64,000 nucleotides of DNA from Candidatus Omnitrophota bacterium. GTDB lineage: Bacteria > Omnitrophota > Omnitrophia > Omnitrophales > Aquincolibacteriaceae. The notes below the pieces were generated by a model. It was not told the DNA's origin. It searched no databases and was given only the letters and a program-made list of their open reading frames with translations. Positions 15,497 to 63,451 of the stretch are shown piece after piece. A program made the position numbers and the translations under genes. The stretch covers positions 642-64,641 of the forward strand of contig JAKJDL010000008.1 in NCBI GenBank assembly GCA_022705945.1, written 5' to 3'. How positions within the stretch are numbered: position 1 is the first letter of the stretch; each line of letters opens with the position of its first letter.

Positions 15497-18400
15497 TTAA
15501 GCGGCGGAGGAGAGAGCGGAGTAAGCGGCATGAATTTCTGTCAGATAATTGCTGAGAAGCCGGCTTGTCGTGCGGACCTTCCCGAAAACCCTCGGCCCGC
15601 CGATCCAATCACGGACGGCGAAAAGGAGCGTGACGCCTTTTTGCGAGTGTTCGCGAGGCAGATCGTCATGGATAAGGTAGGATTCCTTCAGTTTCTCCGG
15701 CGCTACGGCATCCAGCCGGGCCGCAAATTCATCCAGGGTATCGACATTTTCCCGCGCATCAAAAACACATGTTCGTCCCGGATTTTTCAGAAGAAGTTCC
15801 CACGAGGCATTCTGGCGGGCTTCAACAATGATCCGGGATCTTCCCGCCGGCCTCCCCCGCGAACGACGATTCTGCGCCGCTTCCCTGATTAAACCGTTTT
15901 GAAACTCAAGCAATTTTTCTCGCGAAGCACCCGGCACCACAATTTGAATGAAAAGATCGTGAGATACCGCCAAATCCACAGCCTGTCTCACCGCGGGATG
16001 CGAAGGATCGATCATCTCCAAAATAACCGAGAGTTTATCCCCCGCATCCCGGGCTTTCACATCCTGAAAGATTATTTCCAGACCCCGGGTTGCGGCGTCG
16101 CTCTTATTCGCTGCGGAGCCCGATCCGACAAGCAGCGCGATCATTCTTTCGCGTCCCATTTCCAGAACTCTCGAATGACGGATCACTCCCCTCGCGGCAT
16201 TAACCGCTACTTGTCTTTCTGATTCGGCAAGCTCGGCACGCATTTGCTTTTCAGAACCTGTTTCACGGGTTTCGGAACGGGCGAGCTTTCCGTTCATCTT
16301 CAGCGGATCTCCCGTAATAGTTATTGAAAAATTACTTCCGAGGGAGCCCTTATCCGTGAGAAACCCGAGCTTTTCACCCCGAAGCAAATAGTTTTCATAA
16401 AAACGATCCGAGCGCTCCCAGTAGGAGGTCCAGACCAAATCCTTCTCGCCTTTGCGATACAACAAACTTAATACCGCGTCCATCAAAAAAACGCCCTTGC
16501 CCTTATCTCCGTCTTTTTTCGAGACAATTCGTTTGAGATTATTCAAAGAAAAAACCGTTGCCGGCCTTAGATGCGCAAATCCTCTAAGGTTATTCTTTTC
16601 GCCCAGCAACAACAGGGTCGTTGAAACGCCCCCGATGGCCCTGTCCCAATCCTCCTTGTTTCCAAAGGCTTCCCTGTCTTCAAAAGCGGCTCGCTCAAGT
16701 GCCGCGATCTCACCGGCAATATCGCTTTTTGCTTCCGCGGCCAACCTTATGCGGCCGAGGTCAACAATCGTTCCGAACACCGGATCGCTCGCGATAACAG
16801 ATTCGTCAGGGATTGCTAGTTCCGAAAGAGCACCGGCGGGCGGCCGGGGCACATCGGATCCATCCTTCCGAATCTCGCTTCGTTTGGCCGGACTTTCCGG
16901 AGAGGGGGCAAAAACCCACCGGAGCAGGGTGGTATTATCCGGCGCATATTCTCCTCCGGCAAATTCAATATAATCCTGCGCTCGCGCCGATCCCGAAGCG
17001 AGGTAGCGGATCCGTTCATCTTGTATCGTTTTAAGATCGCCGACGTGATAACCATGAATGCCATCGGTCGCAACAAGTATCTCTACCGAACTTTTCGCGC
17101 CTCTCAGATCCAGACGGGTGATGAAGGGTTTCGACACCAAAACCTTTCTGAAGCTTCTGTCACCGAAGGCTCGGGTCAGAGAAAAAAAATGGCGCGTGCG
17201 AAGGTTCATTAACCGCGGGACATTCGAGCTTTTAACTATTTTAAAACCGGGAGCAGAAAGCAGCGCGGGATCATCGCCGACGGTATGCTGAGGGAAAGAC
17301 AGAAACTCACGGTTGTCTTTCAGGACATAAACGGGAGAATCTCCGACAATCATCACGAAGAGGTCCTTTTTATTGTCGGGAACAAAAACCGCTGATAGCG
17401 TCGACCCGGAATCAAACCAAACCGTCAAAAGATGAAGTGTGCGGAATGTCCCGGAGAATGCCGCCCGGATATCACCTCCGCGCAGGAGAACCATAAATCT
17501 AAAAACGGGGGCGAGCAACAACTGAAGCAGTCTTGAGACGCGGGAGCCGTTATGCCCGTCCATAACGGCCATCAACCTCCCGGACGAAAGGAATCCGGGA
17601 ACCGCAACCCGGATCTCCTGATTTATAAAACGGTCCTCCTGATATTTTTTTAATCCCCGGGTTTGGGCCGACTGTGGAACTTCCCGTAACTCGGATCGCT
17701 TTATGACGGCTCCGTCGGGGTTGACCCAAAAGGTTTTGTAAATTTCTTCGTCCAAAAAATGATTGGATTTAACCCGAATGCGGCGGGCTCCGGTCTCATT
17801 ATCGGGCTTTCCGACGCTCACCGCGATCCCGATCATGTGGTCGTGATCATTATGAATTAGCACGGGACCAGAAAAACTTTCCCGAATCGTTTTCAAAAAA
17901 CCCTCTCTCGCCGATTCTCCCGCAGCGAAAAGATGCACTGCCGCTTTTTCTGTAATTCCTTTTTCCAAAAAAATTCTTTTGATGCTGGCAAGATACTCCT
18001 GAAGTTCCGGGTTCGAAATATAATTCCTGTCGCTGTTCCATGGCGAAATGTGCGCCGCACCCACCTTCCCATTTTCAAAAGCGAGAAGGAAAACGCATTG
18101 GCCTGACTGAAGTCCTCCGGAAGCAAACGGCTCATTATCATAAACCTGCAGCATATTCTCCCTGAGATAGCCCCTGATACCCTGGGGAAAGGGTATCCCC
18201 GCGGTGATGTCGTAAACAGGGTTTTCGGGATAATCATCCGGCGGTCTTTCACCCGTGATCATCTCTGTGATCAAATGTCCGAGAACCTTTACCGAGGGAT
18301 TCGTTTGGTAGCGAATAGCGCCGCAAATTTCAAGAAACATTACGGCCGAAAAACCGGTCAGGGCGGTCCGGTAAAGAATTTTCGGCAGCCGGGAAATCCG

Positions 18401-21400
18401 CGGCGAGATTATTTGTCTCAGTTCGCTTCGCCGCGGGTAATTCTTTCCTTCGGGCTCGAAAACAAAGCCCACCTGCCAGCCGCTGACACCGGAATCAAAA
18501 ACAGCTTGCCGTTCAAAAGGTTCCGTAAGCCGGAACCCATGCTTTTCAGCCTCATGAATAAAAAAATCCATCTGCTGAAGATCTTTGGCGGCGCGGATCC
18601 TTTCTTTTAAAAGCCATTCTCCCCTGCGAAAATTTTCTTCGAAGATCTTTAGAATTTCGGCGGTTTTTCCGGGATCCGGGGTGTCGCCGGAAGCGCTGAT
18701 GATAGTTTTGAAAATCTCCAGAACCCGCGAAAGAAAGGCAGCGGATAAAGGATCCTTTTCACCGAAAAACCATATTTCTGCCTGACGTTCGGCCGCCAGG
18801 ATTTTTAAGGTTCTGAGGCTTCTCAATATGCCGGAAAAGCCATTTGGGACATCCGGGGATTCAAGGAAAGCGTTGACGGCTTCAAGAAGACCGCTTTCCC
18901 TGATACGTTCGAATTGCTCCAGATCGATCTTGGCTTTTTCGATGATTCCCGAATCGGCGCGGTGCATGATAAAAAGAGCTCTTGCTCCTTTCTTCATGAC
19001 TCTGGTAAGTTTCAAGAGAACCTCCGCCTCGTTCATGTACTCCAGGGCGTATTGGCTGACCACCGCATCCAGATCTTTCGGGAGTTCCGTCAGGTCCAGA
19101 TCCTCACCCCGGGACCGGACAAAATGAACGCTCTCGGGAATATAATCCTTGCCGATATCCGCTCCGTCCAACGCCCAAAGCTCGAAGTTTTTCTTCGTCT
19201 GAAGCGCTTGCCGGGCAACAAAAAGATTTCCGGCACCGAGATCAAGGACCTTGGAGCCGACAGGAACTCCTTCAAAGAAGTTCTGCCAAAAAGCCCCATA
19301 GGCTTCCTGATGCCTTGCATCCAGAGAGGTTTCACGTTCTCCTGAAAAATGCTGTGTCCACCACAAAAAAGGTTTATCCAATGCGTGATTTTCGGTCTTG
19401 ATGGTCTGTGGAAGCGGAGACGGTTCCGGCTCACTTTGAACGGATCGAACCGCCTCCTCCGGACCGTGAGAAGAAGCAATCCGAAAATTGTTTAAAAAAT
19501 CCCGAACAAACGGGTTCGCCATCAGCTTTTCCATAGAAGAGGATATGTTGAAACTTTCCGTCAGAGACGCATCTGTGAGCTGCTTTTTCGTGAGAAAAAG
19601 AATCTCAGAGACCTCGCCTTGCCCTTTGATGCTCTTTTTCCATTTTTTAAGGCGTTTGATGAATTCAGAATAGTTTTTCCCCCGGGCATCGTCCAAAAAA
19701 ACCTTAAACTCTCTTATTGCCGAAATTTCACGGGGAGTCGGGATATAAACATAAAAACTGGTTCGTCGAGGCTCCCACTTTCTTCCGTCATCAAACATAC
19801 CACGCTCTCCGGCAAGAACGAGATTCCCTTCCGGCTGATAACCTTCACCCCAGATATGCGCCATCCCTGTCTCCTCGGAAATTTCCCTCAGGATTGTTGA
19901 ATCATAAGGGTTCTGGGCCCGGGAGTAAGTGCCGGGCTCTACCATACCTCCGAAAAATTTCATTTTTTGTTTGCCTTCGTTCTCGTGAGGTGAACGCATC
20001 AGAACAAATTCTTCGGTGTCCGGGATAAACAGAACTGCCTTGGCGTTGCGAAGCAAAACCTGTTTTCCCTCCTTCCGTTCCCTTTTAACCGAGCCGCTGA
20101 TAAATGTTCCATCCTCAAGAAAAACAAGATCGGCGACCCCGGCATCCAGGCTGCCGAGGATATGTTCTTCTCCGTTCGACATAACCTCTATCACTTCCAG
20201 ATGCCGGCCCGAAAGACGAAGCTCTCCCGAAAGAACTTTTTGAAGAAGCCGTGTCCGATGTTTCGGAAGGATCGGTGTTTTTGATGTCTTGCCAAGCACG
20301 CCAAGCTGATTGCGAAGCGTGAAATAATCGCGGGGGATTTTAAAAAGACGGGCAATTTTCTTTAACCATTTCCCGGGAGTTTTAAAAAAGAGAACAAGTC
20401 TTCCCCGGACGAATCTTTCTCTGAAATGACGAGGGAAAGAAAACTTGTCATTCGAAGCATTATCAAAGCCTCTCGCTTCGGCTCGGACGGAAACGGCTTC
20501 GCGAGATTCATAAATTGTTTTCGTGCCGCCGGGGACGGCAGAGGGCTCCGCTTGATCCCGATCCGCACCGGATTCTCCCGGGGATTTTTGGGAGGCGACC
20601 GATCTGATTTCATATCTGCCGGTTATTTTTTCCTTTTCATCGCGGAAATCTTCCGCACCCAAACCGGCCTTTCGGGCGTCCGCCGGGAGTTCTCCCCCTC
20701 CCCACGAAAAACCGTGGGCCGCCACCGCCGGGGACCTGAGGCGAGCGATCAACTCATGGTCAGGCACATCCCGGCTGCTGATTTTTTGAAGGGCTTCCCG
20801 AAATTTTTCGAAAAGATGATCAGCGGTAGCGGCGCCAAGGTCGTTTCGAAGATGGGCAAAACCTGCGCCGACGGAGGAGATTCGGATACTGGAAGGCATC
20901 GCCGTATTCCTGAAAGGCTTTTTCGGGGCTTCCTTGCTTTCCGAAAGAGGTTTGCATGTCCGTTCATTTTTAAACCCAAGCATGAGATCAAGATAAGGGC
21001 CCGGATTTTCCGGTTTTGTAATACGCGGTGAAACGCGAATATAAGAAACACCGTTTCTCCGAAATAATTCCGCAATTCCTCCGGAGTGGAATCCTCCCGT
21101 GACAAGAATGGCGTTGGATTCCTTGAGTAAGCGCATCTTCCTGAGCGTTTTATCAAATATTATTTGTTCACGTGCCGTAGCGGTTTTATAAAAACTGAGC
21201 GCGGCCGAAAAAGCCGCCTGAAGGCCGGGGGAAGAATGGAGGGCGGAAAATGGGGTTTTAACTTCACTGTTTCCCGCAGAATGCCATCCGCCATCCAGTT
21301 GCTGGTATTCCTCCCTCGTCATCTCCAGCGCAAAGAGTTTTTTCAGAAGTAGGTATTCCCTGTAGCGTTTTACAGTGTTTTGCTCCTCCCGGCTCGACGC

Positions 21401-22576
21401 GAGTTTATCGAGAATCATGCCGCGGAGCTTCGCGGTTTCTCTTAAAAGATCTTCCGCCTGAATCTCTGAGGAAAGAATCGAAATACCGGTCAACCGGGTC
21501 AAACAAGGGTATTCCTCGAACCGGAATCCCCTGGGCACGGCAACCGCGTAAAAAGTTTCGAGCTGGGTGCGGACATCAGAAACCCGGGAGGATGATGCCG
21601 GCCGCAAGACGGAGTCAAAGTCCCGAAAAAAATCGGTTAATTGTTTTTCTTCCAGCCAGGTTTTTAGTTTTTTTTCTTCGAATTGTTCGCTTCCATCCGT
21701 CCGATCGCCCTCTTTTTCAAGAGCTTTCAGCCTGAAAAACCGAACAAGCTGGGGCCAGTCGTATTGTTCCGCGGGATCAGAAAGATCGACTTTGAGGTAG
21801 CTGACGGCATCCTTCATCAATCTTTCCAAACCGGCAAAGCGCTGGTCCGCGATCTCTTCCCAAAAGGCCCACTCCTTAAAAAAAGCCCTGAGTTCAGGGT
21901 TAAATATCCGGGCAACTTCTCCCGAGATTTTAGTGCGAAGCTTTTTCAGAAAAAGATCCGCCTCCGCCTTGTTGGCGTAAACTTCCCTGAATTGTTCCAG
22001 GTTCTTTTTATAAAGAGCCAAATCTTCCGCCCCCCAAACAACAGGAAGGGTTTCACGGGCCGAACCTTGCTTCGCCGAAGCTGCCGCGGCAAGATCCAGC
22101 TCGACTCCTCCGGCAAGCCCCATGCGGTTAAGCTCGGCAAGAAACTTCATGTTAAGATCAGCGTCGTCAAAAAAATGAAGCGCTTCGGGATCCAGCTTCC
22201 GCCACGCGCCTTCCAGGAAGACCGTTTTCAAACCGTGGGTTCTTCGAAAATAACTTAAGAGTTTTTCAATATTAGCTTGCCCTTCCGGCTGGCCGTGAGC
22301 TTCCTCAATGTGGATAACAAACGGCACCGGGAAGGCCGCGGGAAGCTTTTGATGGAGAGGTTTAAAGCTCTCACGGATCATTCCGAAATCCGGAGGGACC
22401 AGGATTTCATCAATAAGGGAAGGGAGATTAACCTCTGCCCGCGGGCCTGAAACCTGGAGCGGAGCGGCAGCCTGCAAAACCGTGGTTGATGAAAAAATAA
22501 TCAGCATGGCAAAGCTGACCACGCGCAACCAAATATAAGCCGCCCCCTTGTTTATCAGCATAAACTTTTCTTCCAA
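15497..22576 (-). CDS. Giant secreted multidomain protein (2359 aa): signal peptide, shared N-domain, then Nudix, SAM-MTase, PP2C phosphatase and GNAT-like modules
   Basis: Uninterrupted 7.1-kb ORF with a signal peptide (MLINKGAAYIWLRVVSFAMLIIFSSTTVLQAAAP). The N-domain is homologous to those of the 7155-aa and 729-aa ORFs (HIEEAHGQ...NIEKLL; ILVTGGFHSGGIAELFRRNGVSYIRVSP). Nudix box GGMVEPG...ILREISEETG, MTase motif I VLDLGAGN, and PP2C motifs MDGHNGS/SGSTLS/VGDSPVY/LTRAFGD/VATDGI. Confidence 0.85.
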   Translation of the reverse strand: MEEKFMLINKGAAYIWLRVVSFAMLIIFSSTTVLQAAAPLQVSGPRAEVNLPSLIDEILVPPDFGMIRESFKPLHQKLPAAFPVPFVIHIEEAHGQPEGQANIEKLLSYFRRTHGLKTVFLEGAWRKLDPEALHFFDDADLNMKFLAELNRMGLAGGVELDLAAAASAKQGSARETLPVVWGAEDLALYKKNLEQFREVYANKAEADLFLKKLRTKISGEVARIFNPELRAFFKEWAFWEEIADQRFAGLERLMKDAVSYLKVDLSDPAEQYDWPQLVRFFRLKALEKEGDRTDGSEQFEEKKLKTWLEEKQLTDFFRDFDSVLRPASSSRVSDVRTQLETFYAVAVPRGFRFEEYPCLTRLTGISILSSEIQAEDLLRETAKLRGMILDKLASSREEQNTVKRYREYLLLKKLFALEMTREEYQQLDGGWHSAGNSEVKTPFSALHSSPGLQAAFSAALSFYKTATAREQIIFDKTLRKMRLLKESNAILVTGGFHSGGIAELFRRNGVSYIRVSPRITKPENPGPYLDLMLGFKNERTCKPLSESKEAPKKPFRNTAMPSSIRISSVGAGFAHLRNDLGAATADHLFEKFREALQKISSRDVPDHELIARLRSPAVAAHGFSWGGGELPADARKAGLGAEDFRDEKEKITGRYEIRSVASQKSPGESGADRDQAEPSAVPGGTKTIYESREAVSVRAEARGFDNASNDKFSFPRHFRERFVRGRLVLFFKTPGKWLKKIARLFKIPRDYFTLRNQLGVLGKTSKTPILPKHRTRLLQKVLSGELRLSGRHLEVIEVMSNGEEHILGSLDAGVADLVFLEDGTFISGSVKRERKEGKQVLLRNAKAVLFIPDTEEFVLMRSPHENEGKQKMKFFGGMVEPGTYSRAQNPYDSTILREISEETGMAHIWGEGYQPEGNLVLAGERGMFDDGRKWEPRRTSFYVYIPTPREISAIREFKVFLDDARGKNYSEFIKRLKKWKKSIKGQGEVSEILFLTKKQLTDASLTESFNISSSMEKLMANPFVRDFLNNFRIASSHGPEEAVRSVQSEPEPSPLPQTIKTENHALDKPFLWWTQHFSGERETSLDARHQEAYGAFWQNFFEGVPVGSKVLDLGAGNLFVARQALQTKKNFELWALDGADIGKDYIPESVHFVRSRGEDLDLTELPKDLDAVVSQYALEYMNEAEVLLKLTRVMKKGARALFIMHRADSGIIEKAKIDLEQFERIRESGLLEAVNAFLESPDVPNGFSGILRSLRTLKILAAERQAEIWFFGEKDPLSAAFLSRVLEIFKTIISASGDTPDPGKTAEILKIFEENFRRGEWLLKERIRAAKDLQQMDFFIHEAEKHGFRLTEPFERQAVFDSGVSGWQVGFVFEPEGKNYPRRSELRQIISPRISRLPKILYRTALTGFSAVMFLEICGAIRYQTNPSVKVLGHLITEMITGERPPDDYPENPVYDITAGIPFPQGIRGYLRENMLQVYDNEPFASGGLQSGQCVFLLAFENGKVGAAHISPWNSDRNYISNPELQEYLASIKRIFLEKGITEKAAVHLFAAGESAREGFLKTIRESFSGPVLIHNDHDHMIGIAVSVGKPDNETGARRIRVKSNHFLDEEIYKTFWVNPDGAVIKRSELREVPQSAQTRGLKKYQEDRFINQEIRVAVPGFLSSGRLMAVMDGHNGSRVSRLLQLLLAPVFRFMVLLRGGDIRAAFSGTFRTLHLLTVWFDSGSTLSAVFVPDNKKDLFVMIVGDSPVYVLKDNREFLSFPQHTVGDDPALLSAPGFKIVKSSNVPRLMNLRTRHFFSLTRAFGDRSFRKVLVSKPFITRLDLRGAKSSVEILVATDGIHGYHVGDLKTIQDERIRYLASGSARAQDYIEFAGGEYAPDNTTLLRWVFAPSPESPAKRSEIRKDGSDVPRPPAGALSELAIPDESVIASDPVFGTIVDLGRIRLAAEAKSDIAGEIAALERAAFEDREAFGNKEDWDRAIGGVSTTLLLLGEKNNLRGFAHLRPATVFSLNNLKRIVSKKDGDKGKGVFLMDAVLSLLYRKGEKDLVWTSYWERSDRFYENYLLRGEKLGFLTDKGSLGSNFSITITGDPLKMNGKLARSETRETGSEKQMRAELAESERQVAVNAARGVIRHSRVLEMGRERMIALLVGSGSAANKSDAATRGLEIIFQDVKARDAGDKLSVILEMIDPSHPAVRQAVDLAVSHDLFIQIVVPGASREKLLEFQNGLIREAAQNRRSRGRPAGRSRIIVEARQNASWELLLKNPGRTCVFDARENVDTLDEFAARLDAVAPEKLKESYLIHDDLPREHSQKGVTLLFAVRDWIGGPRVFGKVRTTSRLLSNYLTEIHAAYSALSSAA
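17027..17584 (-). other. PP2C-type Ser/Thr phosphatase module inside the 2359-aa protein
   Basis: Ordered PP2C motifs: AVMDGHNGSRV, DSGSTLSAVFV, VGDSPVYVL, LTRAFGD, ILVATDGIHGY. Confidence 0.7.
18932..19294 (-). other. Class-I SAM-dependent methyltransferase module inside the 2359-aa protein
   Basis: Motif I GSKVLDLGAGNLFVARQAL, then an acidic loop (WALDGAD) and motif IV-like VVSQYALEYM. Confidence 0.6.
19697..20044 (-). other. Nudix hydrolase module inside the 2359-aa protein
   Basis: GGMVEPGTYSRAQNPYDSTILREISEETGM matches the Nudix box GX5EX7REUXEEXGU. Confidence 0.7.
20987..22324 (-). other. Shared N-terminal domain (copy 2 of 3) within the 2359-aa protein
   Basis: Aligns by eye with aa 60-545 of the 7155-aa protein and aa 55-440 of the 729-aa protein. 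Conserved His motif plus the TGGFH[ST][DEG]G motif. Confidence 0.7.
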
Positions 22577-23075
22577 GTGCCTTTCCTTAAATGAGTTGAT
22601 CGTGGATTAAGGATAACATCCCGGTTTTTTCTTAGCAAATCGATTTAAAATGTCTTTATAACTAAACATAGCATTAAATAGCTTTGATGTTTAAAATTAT
22701 CTTTTTATTATCTTTTTTATGAATTTATATTTGAAATGGTTCTGTTTGATGGGTGTTTTCCGCCGGACTCCAAGAAAACAGATGCTGCGGCCCTGATCCC
22801 GTTTTTGTCTCCGAATCTCAAAATGTCGGTGATTTAACCTGGAAAAATCTCATGATATAATGCTGTCTCTCTGTGGTTGCCTTTCCCCTTGAGCGGGTGG
22901 GGCATATCCCGGAGTAATATCAATAGCTTGAACCGGCTTTGTTTATCTTTTAAACCTGATTTGCGTCTTGCTCATAACAAAATAGATGGCCCCTCGGGGT
23001 GAGTGGTTCGGAAGGTTTTCCCGACCCGCTCAAATGGATAAAGGAATCGGTTCTTTAACTCAGGAGGAATTTATT
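22577..23075. promoter_or_regulatory. AT-rich divergent intergenic/promoter island between the 2359-aa gene (-) and the SOD gene (+)
   Basis: About 500 bp with GC far below the window average (long A/T runs, e.g. ttatctttttattatcttttttatgaatttatatttgaaatgg). Flanked by divergently transcribed genes. Confidence 0.5.
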
Positions 23076-60300: not shown

Positions 60301-60772
60301 CAACTCCGTAGCCTTTCATGGCGCCGGCCGATTCCATTAAATAAGCTTCCGCTCCGGTAAGTTCGGCAACGCGCAGCAGCCGGTCGTTGATGGTGCGGCG
60401 GAGTTCGGCGTCTCCTCCCGAAAGGTCTATCGAATCGGGACGGAGCTCATAACCTGCGCCCTCCAGATAAACTTCCTTGATATTATAATTTTCACTGAGG
60501 AACCGCAGGATGTCCCTGATGTTCTTCTGGGCATCATAATTGGCGTGAGCTTCCTGGACATGAAGAAGAACCGGAGCGTTCGGACTGCCGAAAATGATCT
60601 CGTGAACTTTGCCTAGCTCGGCCGGAATCTCGAAGTTCTGGACCTGGTTTGCGTGAGCCAGCACTTCCGTCGCGGCATAAGCAAGAGGAGACGGAGTGAG
60701 GGTGTTGGTCGTAAAAAAAGTAACGGCAATCAACCCGGCCAGAAGTCTTTTGATCTTCTTTGAGTAGCTCAT
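39305..60772 (-). CDS. Giant multidomain secreted/membrane polyprotein-like protein (7155 aa): signal peptide, shared N-domain, S8 subtilisin, TM block, receiver-like domain, phosphoglucose isomerase, PPDK-type dikinase module, GT5 glycogen synthase, GT35-like glucan phosphorylase and further unassigned modules
   Basis: Single uninterrupted 21,468-nt ORF. GAGG RBS upstream of the ATG at 60772. Signal peptide [33 protein letters not shown]. Domain motifs are listed in the sub-features below. Confidence 0.85.
43553..45175 (-). other. Alpha-glucan phosphorylase (GT35)-like module, aa about 5200-5740
   Basis: [41 protein letters not shown] resembles the GGLGxLAGD...LxGVGLLY N-terminal block of bacterial/archaeal alpha-glucan phosphorylases. 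Weaker than the other calls. Confidence 0.45.
45923..47701 (-). other. Glycogen/starch synthase (GT5)-like module, aa about 4358-4950
   Basis: [40 protein letters not shown] (the KTGGL-type ADP-glucose motif) ... [10 protein letters not shown] ... [34 protein letters not shown] (the PSRFEPCGL...GGLADTV block). Confidence 0.75.
48638..50110 (-). other. PPDK/PEP-synthase-type nucleotide-binding domain plus phospho-histidine swivel domain, without a PEP/pyruvate TIM barrel (dikinase-like), aa about 3555-4045
   Basis: [25 protein letters not shown]; [25 protein letters not shown]; [31 protein letters not shown] (PPDK_N blocks); then [25 protein letters not shown] (PEP-utilising His domain). No PEP-binding barrel is recognisable afterwards. 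Confidence 0.7.
52853..54400 (-). other. Complete glucose-6-phosphate isomerase (PGI) module, aa about 2125-2640
   Basis: [94 protein letters not shown] and [15 protein letters not shown] are the conserved PGI blocks, in order. Confidence 0.85.
56003..56359 (-). other. CheY-like receiver-type domain (possibly degenerate), aa about 1472-1590
   Basis: [11 protein letters not shown]...[10 protein letters not shown]...[10 protein letters not shown]...GVFEKP mirrors the receiver beta-strand/Asp/Thr/Lys layout. The acidic pocket is partly substituted. Confidence 0.35.
57338..58030 (-). other. Multi-pass transmembrane block (about 6-8 helices), aa about 915-1145
   Basis: Consecutive about 20-aa hydrophobic stretches ([18 protein letters not shown]; [20 protein letters not shown]; [19 protein letters not shown]; [21 protein letters not shown]; [22 protein letters not shown]; [15 protein letters not shown]). 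Confidence 0.65.
58088..58810 (-). other. Subtilisin-like serine protease (peptidase S8) module, aa about 655-895
   Basis: Catalytic-triad motifs in order: Asp in [10 protein letters not shown], His in VDHGSIVA, oxyanion Asn in NMSFGG, and Ser in [11 protein letters not shown]. Confidence 0.8.
59138..60595 (-). other. Shared N-terminal domain (copy 1 of 3), aa about 60-545 of the giant protein
   Basis: [22 protein letters not shown] and [29 protein letters not shown], conserved with the 2359-aa and 729-aa paralogs. Confidence 0.7.
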
Positions 60773-60781
60773 GACCTCGTC

Positions 60782-60819
60782 TTGGAACTGATCTTCTTTT
60801 TTGGAACTGATCTTCTTTT
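60782..60819. repeat. Perfect 19-bp tandem duplication (ttggaactgatcttctttt x2) in the 5' leader of the 7155-aa gene
   Basis: Read directly: 60782-60800 and 60801-60819 are identical. They lie 10-48 nt upstream of the start codon on the coding strand, just before the GAGG RBS. Confidence 0.8.
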
Positions 60820-60965
60820 AAAGTGAACTGGAGAAAACTCACGGAAAAGGTAACACAACTTGGTCAAATTTCAAGCGTTTGAAAAAGTTTTTATCAAAGT
60901 TTGTTTTGATGTTTTCTTTTTAGTTTTAACTATTTTTAGTTTGTTATATTTTGCTATAATCCACA

Positions 60966-61040
60966 ACCCACCCACTCCAACACCGGGACTTAGGCCCGGG
61001 TCTTGGGGTGGGTGGGTTTCGGGGGTGGGGCGGAGGGTGT
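60966..61040. promoter_or_regulatory. GC-rich palindrome (aacccacccac...gtgggtgggtt with inner ccggg/cccgg stem) followed by G-tract cluster (candidate G-quadruplex) in the divergent promoter region
   Basis: Read directly. The outer arms 60966-60976 and 61008-61018 are reverse complements, as are the inner arms 60984-60988 and 60995-60999. Then ggggtgggtgggtttcgggggtggggcggagggtg. Confidence 0.5.
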
Positions 61041-61050
61041 CGTGGATTCG

Positions 61051-61090
61051 TTATGGATATTATGGATATATGGGTACATGGATATTAGCA
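61051..61090. repeat. Clustered TATGGATAT direct repeats (3-4 copies) upstream of the 729-aa paralog
   Basis: ttatggatattatggatatatgggtacatggatatt, about 170 nt upstream of the 61262 start. Possible transcription-factor binding array. Confidence 0.45.
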
Positions 61091-61261
61091 ATACAGTGAC
61101 AATTCTACGCAGTGATGGTTCCATGTTGCCTATGCGGAATTTCTCGGTTACAGTTACATATACTTTTACTTTATGTTTTGTCCATGCTGTTTGTTTTGCT
61201 CGCAACGCTTGTTGATTCGCAAAAAATTTCCGCGGGCGGCACCGCATCATAAAGGACCAAG

Positions 61262-63451
61262 ATGAATAAAATCCTCCGTCTTTCGATTTTCCTGATCCCG
61301 GCATTATTCGCACCGGGACATCTCCGGGCAGAAACTCCGGCAGCTCCGGACAATGGAAACATGTCGATTGATTGCCTTTCCGTGCCTGACGAGATCGGGA
61401 GAATTAAAGAAAGATTCAAGGGCTCTTTGCCGCGGACTGTCATCCAGATCCAGGATGTGCATGCCCATGCTGTCGCGCAGGAAAATATAGCGGCGATTCT
61501 TACGCGTCTCAAGACCGTTTTCCGGGTTGACCGGGCCGCGCTTGAAGGCGCCTGGATCTCCACTTCCCTTCCCAAAAGCCGTTCTCTCCCCTCTTCGCGC
61601 GAAAAACAGCTTCTTGCAAGAACCTTGATGGAGGAAGCCCTTCTGTCGGGTCCCGTTTACGCCGCGATCCTTTCCCCCTCCCCGATCACTCTCGTCGGCA
61701 TCGAGGATGAAACCCATTATGAAAAAAATCGTCGTCTCTATCTGGAGCATTCCAAGGTCAGGGCGACCATTGCCGAAAAGCTGGCCGTTTACCTTGATCG
61801 GTTGAAACATTCGCAGAAAACCCTGTGGAATCCGGAGCTATCGGCTTTTTATAAACTTCTCGACAGTTATTACATGAAAGGCGATCTTTCCGTTTATCTC
61901 CCGGGGGCATTAAAAGTTTCAGAGGCGCACCGGATCGATCTTTCGGATCTGGAGCAGATCGCGCTCGTCAGGAAGATCACGGCTCTTGAGAAACAGCTTG
62001 AGCGGGAACGCTTTGAAAAAGAAACGAAACAGCTGCTGCGCGAATATAAAAACATGCCTTATACCCTTGAAGAGCTTATCCGTGGCGGACGAATACCCGA
62101 CGAAAAACTGGGTTTTTATCCGGAGATCAAAAAAATTCAGGCTCTCATAAAACTCAGGGATTCCCTCTTGACCGCTCAGCTTTGGCTTGAGCTGGAAACA
62201 ATGGCACAGCGCATCGCAGATTCCCTGATCAAAAACAAGGACGAAAACGAGCTTTGGCAAAAAACAAGGCGCTTTTATCCGGTTCAAGGTGTTCTGTTCC
62301 TGGAGGCAACCCCGGACACTCTCGTTTTTCTTGAAAAAAATCTTGTCGCCGTCCGTGAGGATATGACCGAGGCCGGGCTCTCCGAAGAATTCGGGCTTTC
62401 CCTCGCTTTCTACGCGGCCGTCAAAGAGCGCGACGAAATTTTCGCGAACAAGTTGCTGACAGACCCGTCCCTGCAGGGAACGGTTGCGATAGTCACGGGA
62501 GGATTTCATACCGAAGGTCTCTCCCGCAAATTCCGGGATGCCGGCATCTCTTACATCACGATCTCACCGGAACTTGGTGACGGAGTATTCGATAAGCTTC
62601 TTTATGAGAAGCGATTGACGGAACCTTTAGTAACGGCCGGACAGGCTTCTTCCGTATCCGCGGCTCCCTTCACCGCCAGTCAGACTCTCTCCGAGCTTAG
62701 GAACCGCCTTGCCCGGGCAGATGAACGCTTCCCGCCGAGCCTGGATGTCCTTCTGGAAACCAAAAACATCCTCACTGCCGTCGGCGTTTACAAAGGCGAT
62801 GTTCCTCTCTCCGGCTTGAAAAAATCCGCTTCGTCTTCTTATTCGCAGGGGCCGGACTCCCCGGCCGATGTTTCGAGAAAATCATTAGCCTTGTTTTCGG
62901 CCGAATCTTTTATTCGGCAGTCCAGGGATTCGCAGCTGGCCGAAATCCGCGCGTGGATGGAAAAATCCGGTCGGGCGGATTCCAGGGCCATGCTCGCCGC
63001 GGAAACGGAAGCGATGAAAAAACTTTTAGAAAATCCCGTTTCGGAAGCGTTGTTTGACCGGATGATTGAAGCCGGGGACATCCTCGCCCTCGCTCAAAAC
63101 CGGACTATCGATCCCGCTCGGCTCCCCGACCGGCTTGTTTTTTCGAAGGGCGTCGAACGTTTTGAGGTCCGCAACGAGGATCCTTCGCTTCCGGATATCG
63201 AGGTCCTGCTTCAGGGAACTCCCCGTTTTAAACGCTTCGCCCAGAAATATCCGTTTGCGATCATGAAATCCGGCTACGCGAACGAAAGGTTCGTCGTTCT
63301 CCCGGAATCCCCTGCCGCGCTTGTTCTTTACCGGCTTATCGCGCTGGACGCGGGGCTCTACAGGGCCGCAAGAAATCCGGAGTTCGTGAAATTGCTGGAG
63401 GGGCTTGTAGCCGAGATCCTGTCGAGCGGGATCGTGGAACGGGCCGCTTAA
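61262..63451 (+). CDS. Secreted paralog (729 aa) consisting of the shared N-domain plus an about 290-aa uncharacterised C-terminal tail
   Basis: Signal peptide MNKILRLSIFLIPALFAPGHLRA. IQIQDVHAHAVAQENIAAIL and AIVTGGFHTEGLSRKFRDAGISYITISP are conserved with the two giant proteins. AAGGA RBS upstream. Confidence 0.8.
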   Translation: MNKILRLSIFLIPALFAPGHLRAETPAAPDNGNMSIDCLSVPDEIGRIKERFKGSLPRTVIQIQDVHAHAVAQENIAAILTRLKTVFRVDRAALEGAWISTSLPKSRSLPSSREKQLLARTLMEEALLSGPVYAAILSPSPITLVGIEDETHYEKNRRLYLEHSKVRATIAEKLAVYLDRLKHSQKTLWNPELSAFYKLLDSYYMKGDLSVYLPGALKVSEAHRIDLSDLEQIALVRKITALEKQLERERFEKETKQLLREYKNMPYTLEELIRGGRIPDEKLGFYPEIKKIQALIKLRDSLLTAQLWLELETMAQRIADSLIKNKDENELWQKTRRFYPVQGVLFLEATPDTLVFLEKNLVAVREDMTEAGLSEEFGLSLAFYAAVKERDEIFANKLLTDPSLQGTVAIVTGGFHTEGLSRKFRDAGISYITISPELGDGVFDKLLYEKRLTEPLVTAGQASSVSAAPFTASQTLSELRNRLARADERFPPSLDVLLETKNILTAVGVYKGDVPLSGLKKSASSSYSQGPDSPADVSRKSLALFSAESFIRQSRDSQLAEIRAWMEKSGRADSRAMLAAETEAMKKLLENPVSEALFDRMIEAGDILALAQNRTIDPARLPDRLVFSKGVERFEVRNEDPSLPDIEVLLQGTPRFKRFAQKYPFAIMKSGYANERFVVLPESPAALVLYRLIALDAGLYRAARNPEFVKLLEGLVAEILSSGIVERAA

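Follow-up and report, generated by a model that had tools for sequence, protein, structure and literature searches.

A predicted promoter region shared by a giant gene and its small divergent neighbor in Omnitrophota, and the repeats within it

Given the concentration of repeats in a short spacer directly upstream of a giant gene, this locus raises the question of whether the repeats themselves control expression or only share the spacer with the sequences that do. The locus lies in a 64-kb stretch of DNA from Candidatus Omnitrophota, the whole of which is hereafter called the window. A giant gene, an open reading frame (ORF) of 7155 amino acids at 39305-60772 on the minus strand, and a small gene, an ORF of 729 amino acids at 61262-63451 on the plus strand, diverge from a spacer of 489 bp at 60773-61261, in agreement with the coordinates of a preliminary description of this DNA. 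That description also called the two genes paralogs. The homology is real (24% identity over 538 amino acids, E 1e-15), but it is confined to the first ~570 amino acids of the giant protein, an N-terminal domain in which the motifs QDVHA and VTGGFHT, invariant in the family of the 729-aa protein, are also found. The preferred reading, to which we assign a probability of roughly 0.6, is that the spacer serves this gene pair, which is conserved across Omnitrophota, as a common back-to-back promoter region, and that its repeats are lineage-specific products, neutral or mildly modulating in effect.

The conserved core of the spacer

A scan of relatives at one genome per species returned 79 loci. 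The divergent pair was present in more than 20 Omnitrophota genomes, with 729-aa orthologs 42-59% identical to the protein of the window and orthologs of the giant N-terminus in those pairs 29-54% identical, and ~160 bp of the spacer recurred in these genomes, which bears out the earlier view of the spacer as a control region. The spacers of the relatives are usually 260-320 bp long, against 489 bp in the window, and they hold long near-identical blocks although identity between the proteins has fallen to ~45%; on these comparisons, the spacer DNA is better conserved than the proteins that flank it. A profile built from the relatives' spacers matched the window at 60800-60961 (E 8e-24) and gave no match in the window beyond this interval. 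About 110 bp of non-coding DNA (60847-60960 in the window, and the spacers of loci L002-L024, L042 and L081) are conserved across Omnitrophota species. Each of 18 orthologous loci, and likewise the window, has the signature AATTTCAA-N4-TTG-N-AAAAG at exactly one site; it is missing from ~40 paralog loci and from the rest of the window. For the conserved core, RNAalifold on 24 sequences returned no compensatory pairs and just the invariant TTTCAA/TTGAAA pairing (-2.06 kcal/mol). Because no structure backed by compensatory changes emerged, the constraint on the core appears to act on the DNA. The following elements make up this core and its counterpart near the small gene.

60847-60855, minus strand: extended -10 element TGTTACCTT, of the form TG-n-TA-n-n-T-T, in the predicted promoter of the giant gene
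60869-60874, minus strand: -35 hexamer TTGAAA, conserved in 22-24 of 24 sequences, 16 nt (gap-free) upstream of the -10 hexamer
60831-60840, minus strand: GAGTTTTCTC, just downstream of the -10 element, kept in the subclade of L002, L006, L013, L017 and L019
60869-60898, no strand assigned: block B, a TTTCAA-N4-TTGAAA palindrome followed by AAAAGnnTTTATCAA, present once per orthologous locus and nowhere else
60941-60960, plus strand: block C, a direct repeat TTGTTATATT/TTGCTATAAT with a 10-bp period
61126-61154, plus strand: candidate for block D, TTGCCT-N17-TACAGT, a weak match to the predicted promoter of the 729-aa gene

Column counts over the 24 aligned orthologous spacers, read on the strand of the giant gene, revealed that the TG, the TA and the final T of the extended -10 are invariant (24/24) and that the penultimate T is kept in 20 of the 24, whereas the remaining positions are free. 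Since the invariant positions are those that an extended -10 sigma-70 promoter requires, TTGAAA-N16-TGnTAnnTT is predicted to be the promoter of the giant gene; it combines the -35-like hexamer, the 16-18-nt spacer and the conserved TGnTAnnnT of that promoter class. Transcription of the giant gene would then begin near 60840. Just upstream of the -35 is an equally conserved A/T tract (TTGATAAAnnCTTTTTCAA on the minus strand), which together with the -35 makes up the TTTCAA-N4-TTGAAAAAG palindrome of block B and may be either an UP-like element or a protein (operator) site. The near-consensus -35, the extended -10 and the UP-like tract suggest strong expression rather than the tight control that the preliminary description had expected for a 780-kDa product.

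Block C reads TTGCTATAAATTGCTAT in the relatives and TTGTTATATTTTGCTATAAT in the window, and belongs to a TTGCTAT-type repeat with the consensus TTGCTAT-N3-TTGCTAT; it is probably a transcription-factor site. In the window, its second copy also reads as a perfect extended -10, TGCTATAAT. Block D takes the form TTGATT-N17-TATATA on the plus strand in most relatives. Its assignment to the 729-aa gene comes from locus L007, which lacks both block B and an adjacent giant gene but keeps block D with the 729-aa gene. The spacer of the candidate in the window includes GGAATTTCTCGGTTA, identical to 15 nt of block D in L018. We infer that these conserved blocks, not the repeats, do the regulatory work.

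This arrangement resembles pairs of divergent sigma-70 promoters that stand back to back and have an extended -10 (TGnTATAAT). With these the window shares TTGAAA, 16-17-nt spacers, the A/T tract, a conservation limited to the sigma-contacted TG, TA and final T, and a second promoter on the opposite strand. It differs in the weak match of the promoter of the 729-aa gene and in that the promoters of the window are predicted solely from conservation. To our knowledge, promoters of Omnitrophota have not been described, and the word "promoter" was absent from the accounts of Omnitrophota giant genes in which it was looked for. The conserved core points to a -35/extended -10 promoter and two candidate protein-binding sites, and these motifs, together with the predicted starts, offer a handle on giant-gene expression in uncultured Omnitrophota. 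This by-product, a predicted phylum-wide promoter architecture of an Archaeovorin-like giant gene (see below), may be more useful than the repeats that first drew attention to the locus.

The repeats and their likely origin

The flagged repeats are found in two places, the giant gene's leader and the C-D linker. They are listed here with a further small tandem and the 9 nt that precede the giant gene.

60773-60781, minus strand: final 9 nt of the leader (sense GACGAGGTC), with the Shine-Dalgarno-like motif GAGG
60782-60819, minus strand: 19-bp tandem in two copies, TTGGAACTGATCTTCTTTT at 60782-60800 and 60801-60819 (in the sense direction, AAAAGAAGATCAGTTCCAA twice)
60965-61018, no strand assigned: GC-rich imperfect palindrome, with arms of 23 nt each at 60965-60987 and 60996-61018
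60958-61048, no strand assigned: hairpin unit, an outer 7-bp stem AATCCAC/GTGGATT around the palindrome with a 23-nt G-rich one-sided bulge, specific to the window
61005-61040, plus strand: G-run cluster with runs of 4, 3, 3, 5, 4, 2 and 3 (GGGG/GGG/GGG/GGGGG/GGGG/(GG)/GGG), the runs extending to 61037
61051-61087, plus strand: TTATGGATA array with a unit of 8-9 bp (Tandem Repeats Finder (TRF) period 8, 4.3 copies, 79% matches)
61147-61158, plus strand: 6-bp tandem GTTACA x2, a small local duplication

The two copies of the 19-mer are 100% identical and form the top tandem repeat of the window (TRF score 76; runner-up 50), with no further copy within 3 mismatches in the 64 kb (0.05 expected). 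The tandem abuts the ribosome-binding site (RBS) of the giant gene, as noted previously, ending 9 nt from the ATG with GAGG in between; these 9 nt (GACGAGGTC) are identical in L019 and similar in L002 (GCTGAGGCT). Because the conserved promoter sits upstream of the tandem, the 19-mer is predicted to lie inside the 5′ untranslated region (5′UTR), and a transcription start downstream of it, which would deny it a place in the leader, is not indicated by the predicted start at ~60840. Between the -10 hexamer and the ATG lie 74 nt in the window, a length equal to 55 + 19; the same interval measures 45-55 nt in 17 of 22 loci. The second copy thus accounts for the excess length of the leader and is therefore best explained as a recent duplication in the lineage of the window. 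The unit itself was not found in any of the relatives across the 23 orthologous spacers, the set to which the absences given below also refer.

The palindrome, the G-tract and the array fill the linker between blocks C and D, which is ~165 nt long in the window and ranges from ~35 to ~290 nt in relatives, roughly 35-100 nt of it unconserved in most. The palindrome begins 4 nt past the end of the homology to the relatives (60961). Its arms are 87% complementary across an 8-nt gap, giving 54 bp in total (53 bp in the preliminary description). In a list of the 25 longest hairpin-type inverted repeats of the window, it ranks third by length and shares the top complementarity, and no other entry combines the two so well. 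Folding z-scores were -3.4 for plus-strand RNA, -5.0 for minus-strand RNA and -4.2 for DNA. No orthologous spacer holds the palindrome or a relative of it, and no second copy of the palindrome or G-tract occurs in the 64 kb, in 81 Omnitrophota loci (~600 kb) or in viral contigs.

Seven runs of at least three G fall within 40 nt at the G-run cluster, against a maximum of four anywhere else in the window, and its G4Hunter score of 2.60 is the highest of the window (next 1.92). A canonical G-quadruplex (G4) motif, with at least four such runs, loops of 1-7 nt and a G4Hunter score above 1.5, spans 60998-61037. The runs had been described as following the palindrome and as a candidate G4 or protein-binding site. 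The runs are indeed present, but the first three of them form the right arm of the palindrome and are paired in the hairpin in the RNA fold; likewise, the motif is genuine but not conserved, occurring in 0 of the 23 orthologous spacers, where G4Hunter reaches at most 1.28. The distal G-runs resemble a degenerate duplicate of the G-rich arm, and contribute ~4-5 kcal/mol to the RNA fold when G-quadruplexes are allowed.

The array consists of two perfect copies of TATGGATAT at 61052 and 61061, CATGGATAT at 61077 and a degenerate ATGGGTAC. The count of the 9-mer over the window is not significant (8 observed, 4.5 expected), and its clustering is real. None of the relatives' spacers has a TGGAT array. 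The array of three to four copies reported earlier is thus present, but not next to an AT-rich stretch: the AT-rich DNA (60850-60949, 23% GC) lies on the other side of the palindrome, ~100 bp away. The last copy of the array runs into TGGATATTAGCAA (61079-61091), a weak inverted copy of TTGCTATAATCCA in block C (60951-60963). These may be the outer arms of a palindrome that used to be larger and whose right arm later gained the G-tract (23 nt) and the array (36 nt); the geometry fits such a model, and the match of the outer arms is marginal (p ~0.04 by shuffling).

The sole independent assembly of this region (L001, Logan SRR29782965) has 100% identity to the window over 4.3 kb. Its first base corresponds to window position 60977, within the palindrome, so that it confirms the G-tract and the array and leaves the 19-mer and the left arm of the palindrome uncovered. 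That this assembly ends within the palindrome may reflect a problem of assembly or coverage at the hairpin and G-tract, or heterogeneity of the population.

The preliminary description had suggested searching for the repeats upstream of other giant or paralogous genes. None of the four flagged elements, the G-run cluster included, recurs elsewhere in the window or in front of the paralogs, and all four are absent from the orthologous spacers. Under the refuting condition named in the preliminary description, repeats confined to this locus and without conservation in related genomes, the proposal that they are control devices fails. They are ordinary kinds of feature in a new place, lineage-specific additions that are most likely neutral or at most mildly modulating. 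The conserved work-horses would be the sigma-70 promoter of the giant gene, the TTGCTAT repeat and the promoter of the 729-aa gene. Onto these, a recent slipped-strand duplication of 19 nt would have been added in the 5′UTR of the giant gene; a GC-rich quasi-palindrome would have arisen in the linker, its G-rich arm extended by degenerate duplication into a G4-like tract; and the 8-9-bp TGGAT unit would have been amplified locally. The repeats would then be products of slippage and template switching in tolerant intergenic DNA, with little importance of their own, and the doubled GTTACA fits a local history of slippage. Their possible effects would be a longer leader, a 5′ hairpin if TGCTATAAT fires, and a wider separation of the promoters.

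Other explanations of the repeats

Several findings weigh against this preferred reading. A generic promoter scan of the spacer, with stricter scoring of the hexamers, returned no site at threshold. The two 19-mer copies are still perfect. The nearest relative with a spacer in the comparison has 59% protein identity, which leaves room for a young function. No other hairpin or G4-type sequence in the 64 kb is as extreme as this hairpin and G-tract, which is more than neutral drift alone would lead one to expect. Just 5 nt separate the perfect extended -10 TGCTATAAT from the palindrome stem that follows it, so a transcript could start at the base of the hairpin, and the arm mismatch of the palindrome, which is G.U in plus-strand RNA and A.C on the minus strand, favors a plus-strand RNA.

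The last of these findings also underlie the suggestion that the hairpin and G-tract are a young, functional regulatory element of this lineage, which we regard as improbable but worth keeping in view. Such an element might be a 5′ RNA stem-loop, stabilizer or attenuator of a long leader of the 729-aa gene or of a short TGCTATAAT transcript, a cruciform or G4/i-motif driven by supercoiling, or a G4 that transcription opens in the non-template strand, the G-rich one, as at Neisseria pilE. The inverted repeat with the best length and complementarity coincides here with the strongest G4 score of the window, the fold z-scores run from -3.4 to -5.0, and the distal G-runs stabilize the fold where quadruplexes are allowed. 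The element would also sit between two predicted divergent starts ~320 bp apart, where negative supercoiling would concentrate. Against it stands its absence from 23 of 23 orthologous spacers, all of them also free of G4 motifs. No Rfam family matched it: with Rfam 15 and a permissive E, the best match in the spacer, a drum RNA with E 0.2, scored 22.5 bits where the gathering score of the family is 43, and the remaining hits were sub-threshold noise of the miRNA-hairpin type. Under the criterion of a G+C-rich stem-loop directly followed by at least 5 T in 8 nt, no intrinsic terminator was called at the palindrome; the stem is followed by TTTCGGGG on the plus strand or GTGGATTA on the minus strand, with just UUU and no U-run. 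The hairpin ties up the first three G-runs, and no silent cassettes or recombination partners are visible.

Two known systems invite comparison. Stem-loops at the 5′ end can stabilize transcripts, as in the ompA 5′UTR. Like these and like Rho-independent terminators, the palindrome is long and G+C-rich and would stand at the 5′ end of a possible TGCTATAAT transcript; it differs from terminators in having three U after the stem and no upstream gene to terminate, and the transcript is hypothetical. In Neisseria gonorrhoeae, a G4 with an adjacent small RNA (sRNA) promoter reportedly lies at pilE (as attributed to Cahoon and Seifert). The window likewise has runs of G3-5 with 1-nt loops (GGGGTGGGTGGG...) upstream of a surface-protein gene, and its promoter-like element would likewise use the C-rich strand as template. 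In contrast to pilE, it has no silent donor cassettes, its paralogs are 24% identical, the element is not conserved, half of its G-runs are locked in the hairpin, and the G4 is predicted from sequence.

A more elaborate proposal would have the element act as a non-B DNA or RNA switch (cruciform, G4 or 5′ hairpin), triggered by supercoiling or transcription, that couples or insulates both genes, with the 19-mer as a second dial tunable by copy number. The element lies between the two predicted divergent promoters, directly behind a perfect extended -10; we consider this combination quite unlikely.

Comparably doubtful is the idea that the palindrome, with or without its outer 7-bp stem, is a miniature palindromic mobile element, akin to repetitive extragenic palindromic (REP) sequences, lodged in a linker that tolerates insertions. 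That the linker does so follows from L004 (3092-3991), in which the orthologous spacer is swollen to 900 bp. It carries two elements resembling miniature inverted-repeat transposable elements (MITEs) with TGTAACCGTTCA-type inverted termini, a palindrome with 34-nt arms and a perfect 44-bp palindrome. These occur in the giant gene's leader as well as between blocks C and D, and are unrelated to the palindrome of the window. A perfect palindrome of 26 bp is present in L039. Like REP and MITE elements, the palindrome of the window is GC-rich, imperfect, intergenic and restricted to one lineage, beginning where homology to the relatives ends, and L004 has multi-copy-looking elements at the same place. 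It differs in being single-copy in the 64 kb and absent from the 81 loci, with no viral-contig match, no target-site duplication seen, no family and no sequence similarity to the elements of L004 or L039.

For the 19-bp tandem, a role as translational-control site, sRNA target or copy-number-variable, phase-variation-like switch of the giant gene is very unlikely. Its position in the predicted 5′UTR, 9 nt from the ATG, and the perfection of its copies are compatible with such a role. The unit also includes GTTCCAA, a degenerate counterpart of the leader motif TTCCGAAAGGA kept in relatives, and its 11-mer AAAGAAGATCA (sense) recurs at 60753-60763 in addition to 60791-60801 and 60810-60820. The copy at 60753-60763 belongs to codons 4-8 of the giant gene and is spaced exactly 2 x 19 nt from the proximal one; this recurrence past the start codon is either chance or a remnant of an older duplication across it. 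The preliminary suggestion of translational control or sRNA targeting found no support, since the accessibility of the start region and RBS in leader folding is unchanged (0.46 with one copy, 0.44 with two), no sequence complementary to the 19-mer that might mark an sRNA partner occurs in the window, and the relatives lack the unit. There is also no in-frame upstream ORF (uORF) start downstream of the predicted transcription start. Contingency repeats near translation starts, which vary in phase, and slipped-strand duplications are known from Neisseria and Haemophilus, for example. The 19-mer resembles them in its perfect head-to-tail copies just upstream of the start of a large surface-type protein, and in that other lineages, too, have small duplications in this leader. 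It differs in having just two copies of a long unit, neither a homopolymer nor a short-unit tract, with no predicted effect on the RBS.

Other small changes were seen in leaders of the giant gene. L018 (3600-3625) has an independent 9-bp tandem (TATATTGGA x2), and L006 (3625-3640) has an independent 9-nt insertion containing TTCC. In the other AT-rich divergent spacer of the window, upstream of a 2359-aa ORF (15497-22576, minus strand), a perfect 11-bp tandem (ATTATCTTTTT x2) lies at 22696-22717, and a TGATATAAT extended -10-like element near 22852-22860. Coupling through a uORF was considered for a 32-codon ORF at 60867-60769 on the minus strand, whose ATGA overlaps the ATG of the giant gene. 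It was rejected: its single start, the TTG at 60867, precedes the predicted transcription start, and its frame would be shifted by the 19-nt duplication. No support was obtained for small proteins encoded in the spacer.

A replication origin or DnaA-regulated site can be dismissed: DnaA-box-like 9-mers (TAATCCACA at 60957, 1 mismatch from TTATCCACA; two ATATCCATA at 2 mismatches; CGAATCCAC) do lie near the AT-rich stretch, but boxes with at most 2 mismatches number 143 per 64 kb (~1 per 450 bp), so that three in 489 bp are no enrichment, the boxes are not conserved in orthologous spacers, GC skew is negative throughout the window with no switch, and neither a dnaA/dnaN context nor a general switch of gene orientation downstream is evident. 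The cluster of TTATNCACA boxes was accordingly rejected as an origin.

Inspection also disposed of two further candidates: a sigma-54 reading of TGGTTCCATGTTGC (61116-61129), in which the GG-GC spacing is one nt short, and an attC-like reading of the palindrome, in which the R''/R' core sequences do not fit. The tRNA/tmRNA scan returned nothing, and 61019-61261 folds no better than shuffled sequence (z +0.87), which gives no indication of a structured RNA there. A small GC hairpin (CGCGGGCGGCACCGCA, 61246-61231), terminator-like on the minus strand with a stem and a T-run but no better than chance in the scan, precedes the ATG of the 729-aa gene by 16 nt.

The gene pair and its closest relatives

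The 729-aa protein carries a signal peptide. A protein search returned more than 120 homologs, all from Candidatus Omnitrophota; a Pfam search gave no domains, and a search of PDB sequences with the family profile gave no relatives. The giant protein combines the ~570-aa N-terminal domain, of no known family, with an S8 subtilase, transmembrane segments, a complete phosphoglucose isomerase (E 1e-222), PPDK_N/PEP-utilizer domains, a GT5 glycogen-synthase-like domain, GT1 and a phosphorylase fragment. The same mix of domains has been described for the "Archaeovorin" giant proteins of Omnitrophota (bioRxiv 10.1101/2023.11.21.568195), and by its domain content the giant gene is an Archaeovorin-like mega-fusion of ~7 thousand amino acids.

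Beyond the relatives compared above, the closest were one at 44% in a metagenome scan and a best match of 46% in a protein search with the giant N-terminus. A contig labeled Thermotogaceae (L003, JAAYCF010000317.1) is 88.8% identical in nucleotides at 953-2088 to window 62145-63283, a match that misses the spacer. Its first 950 nt are unrelated to the window, and the contig is probably chimeric or mis-binned; it nevertheless places a close Omnitrophota relative in an anaerobic digester.

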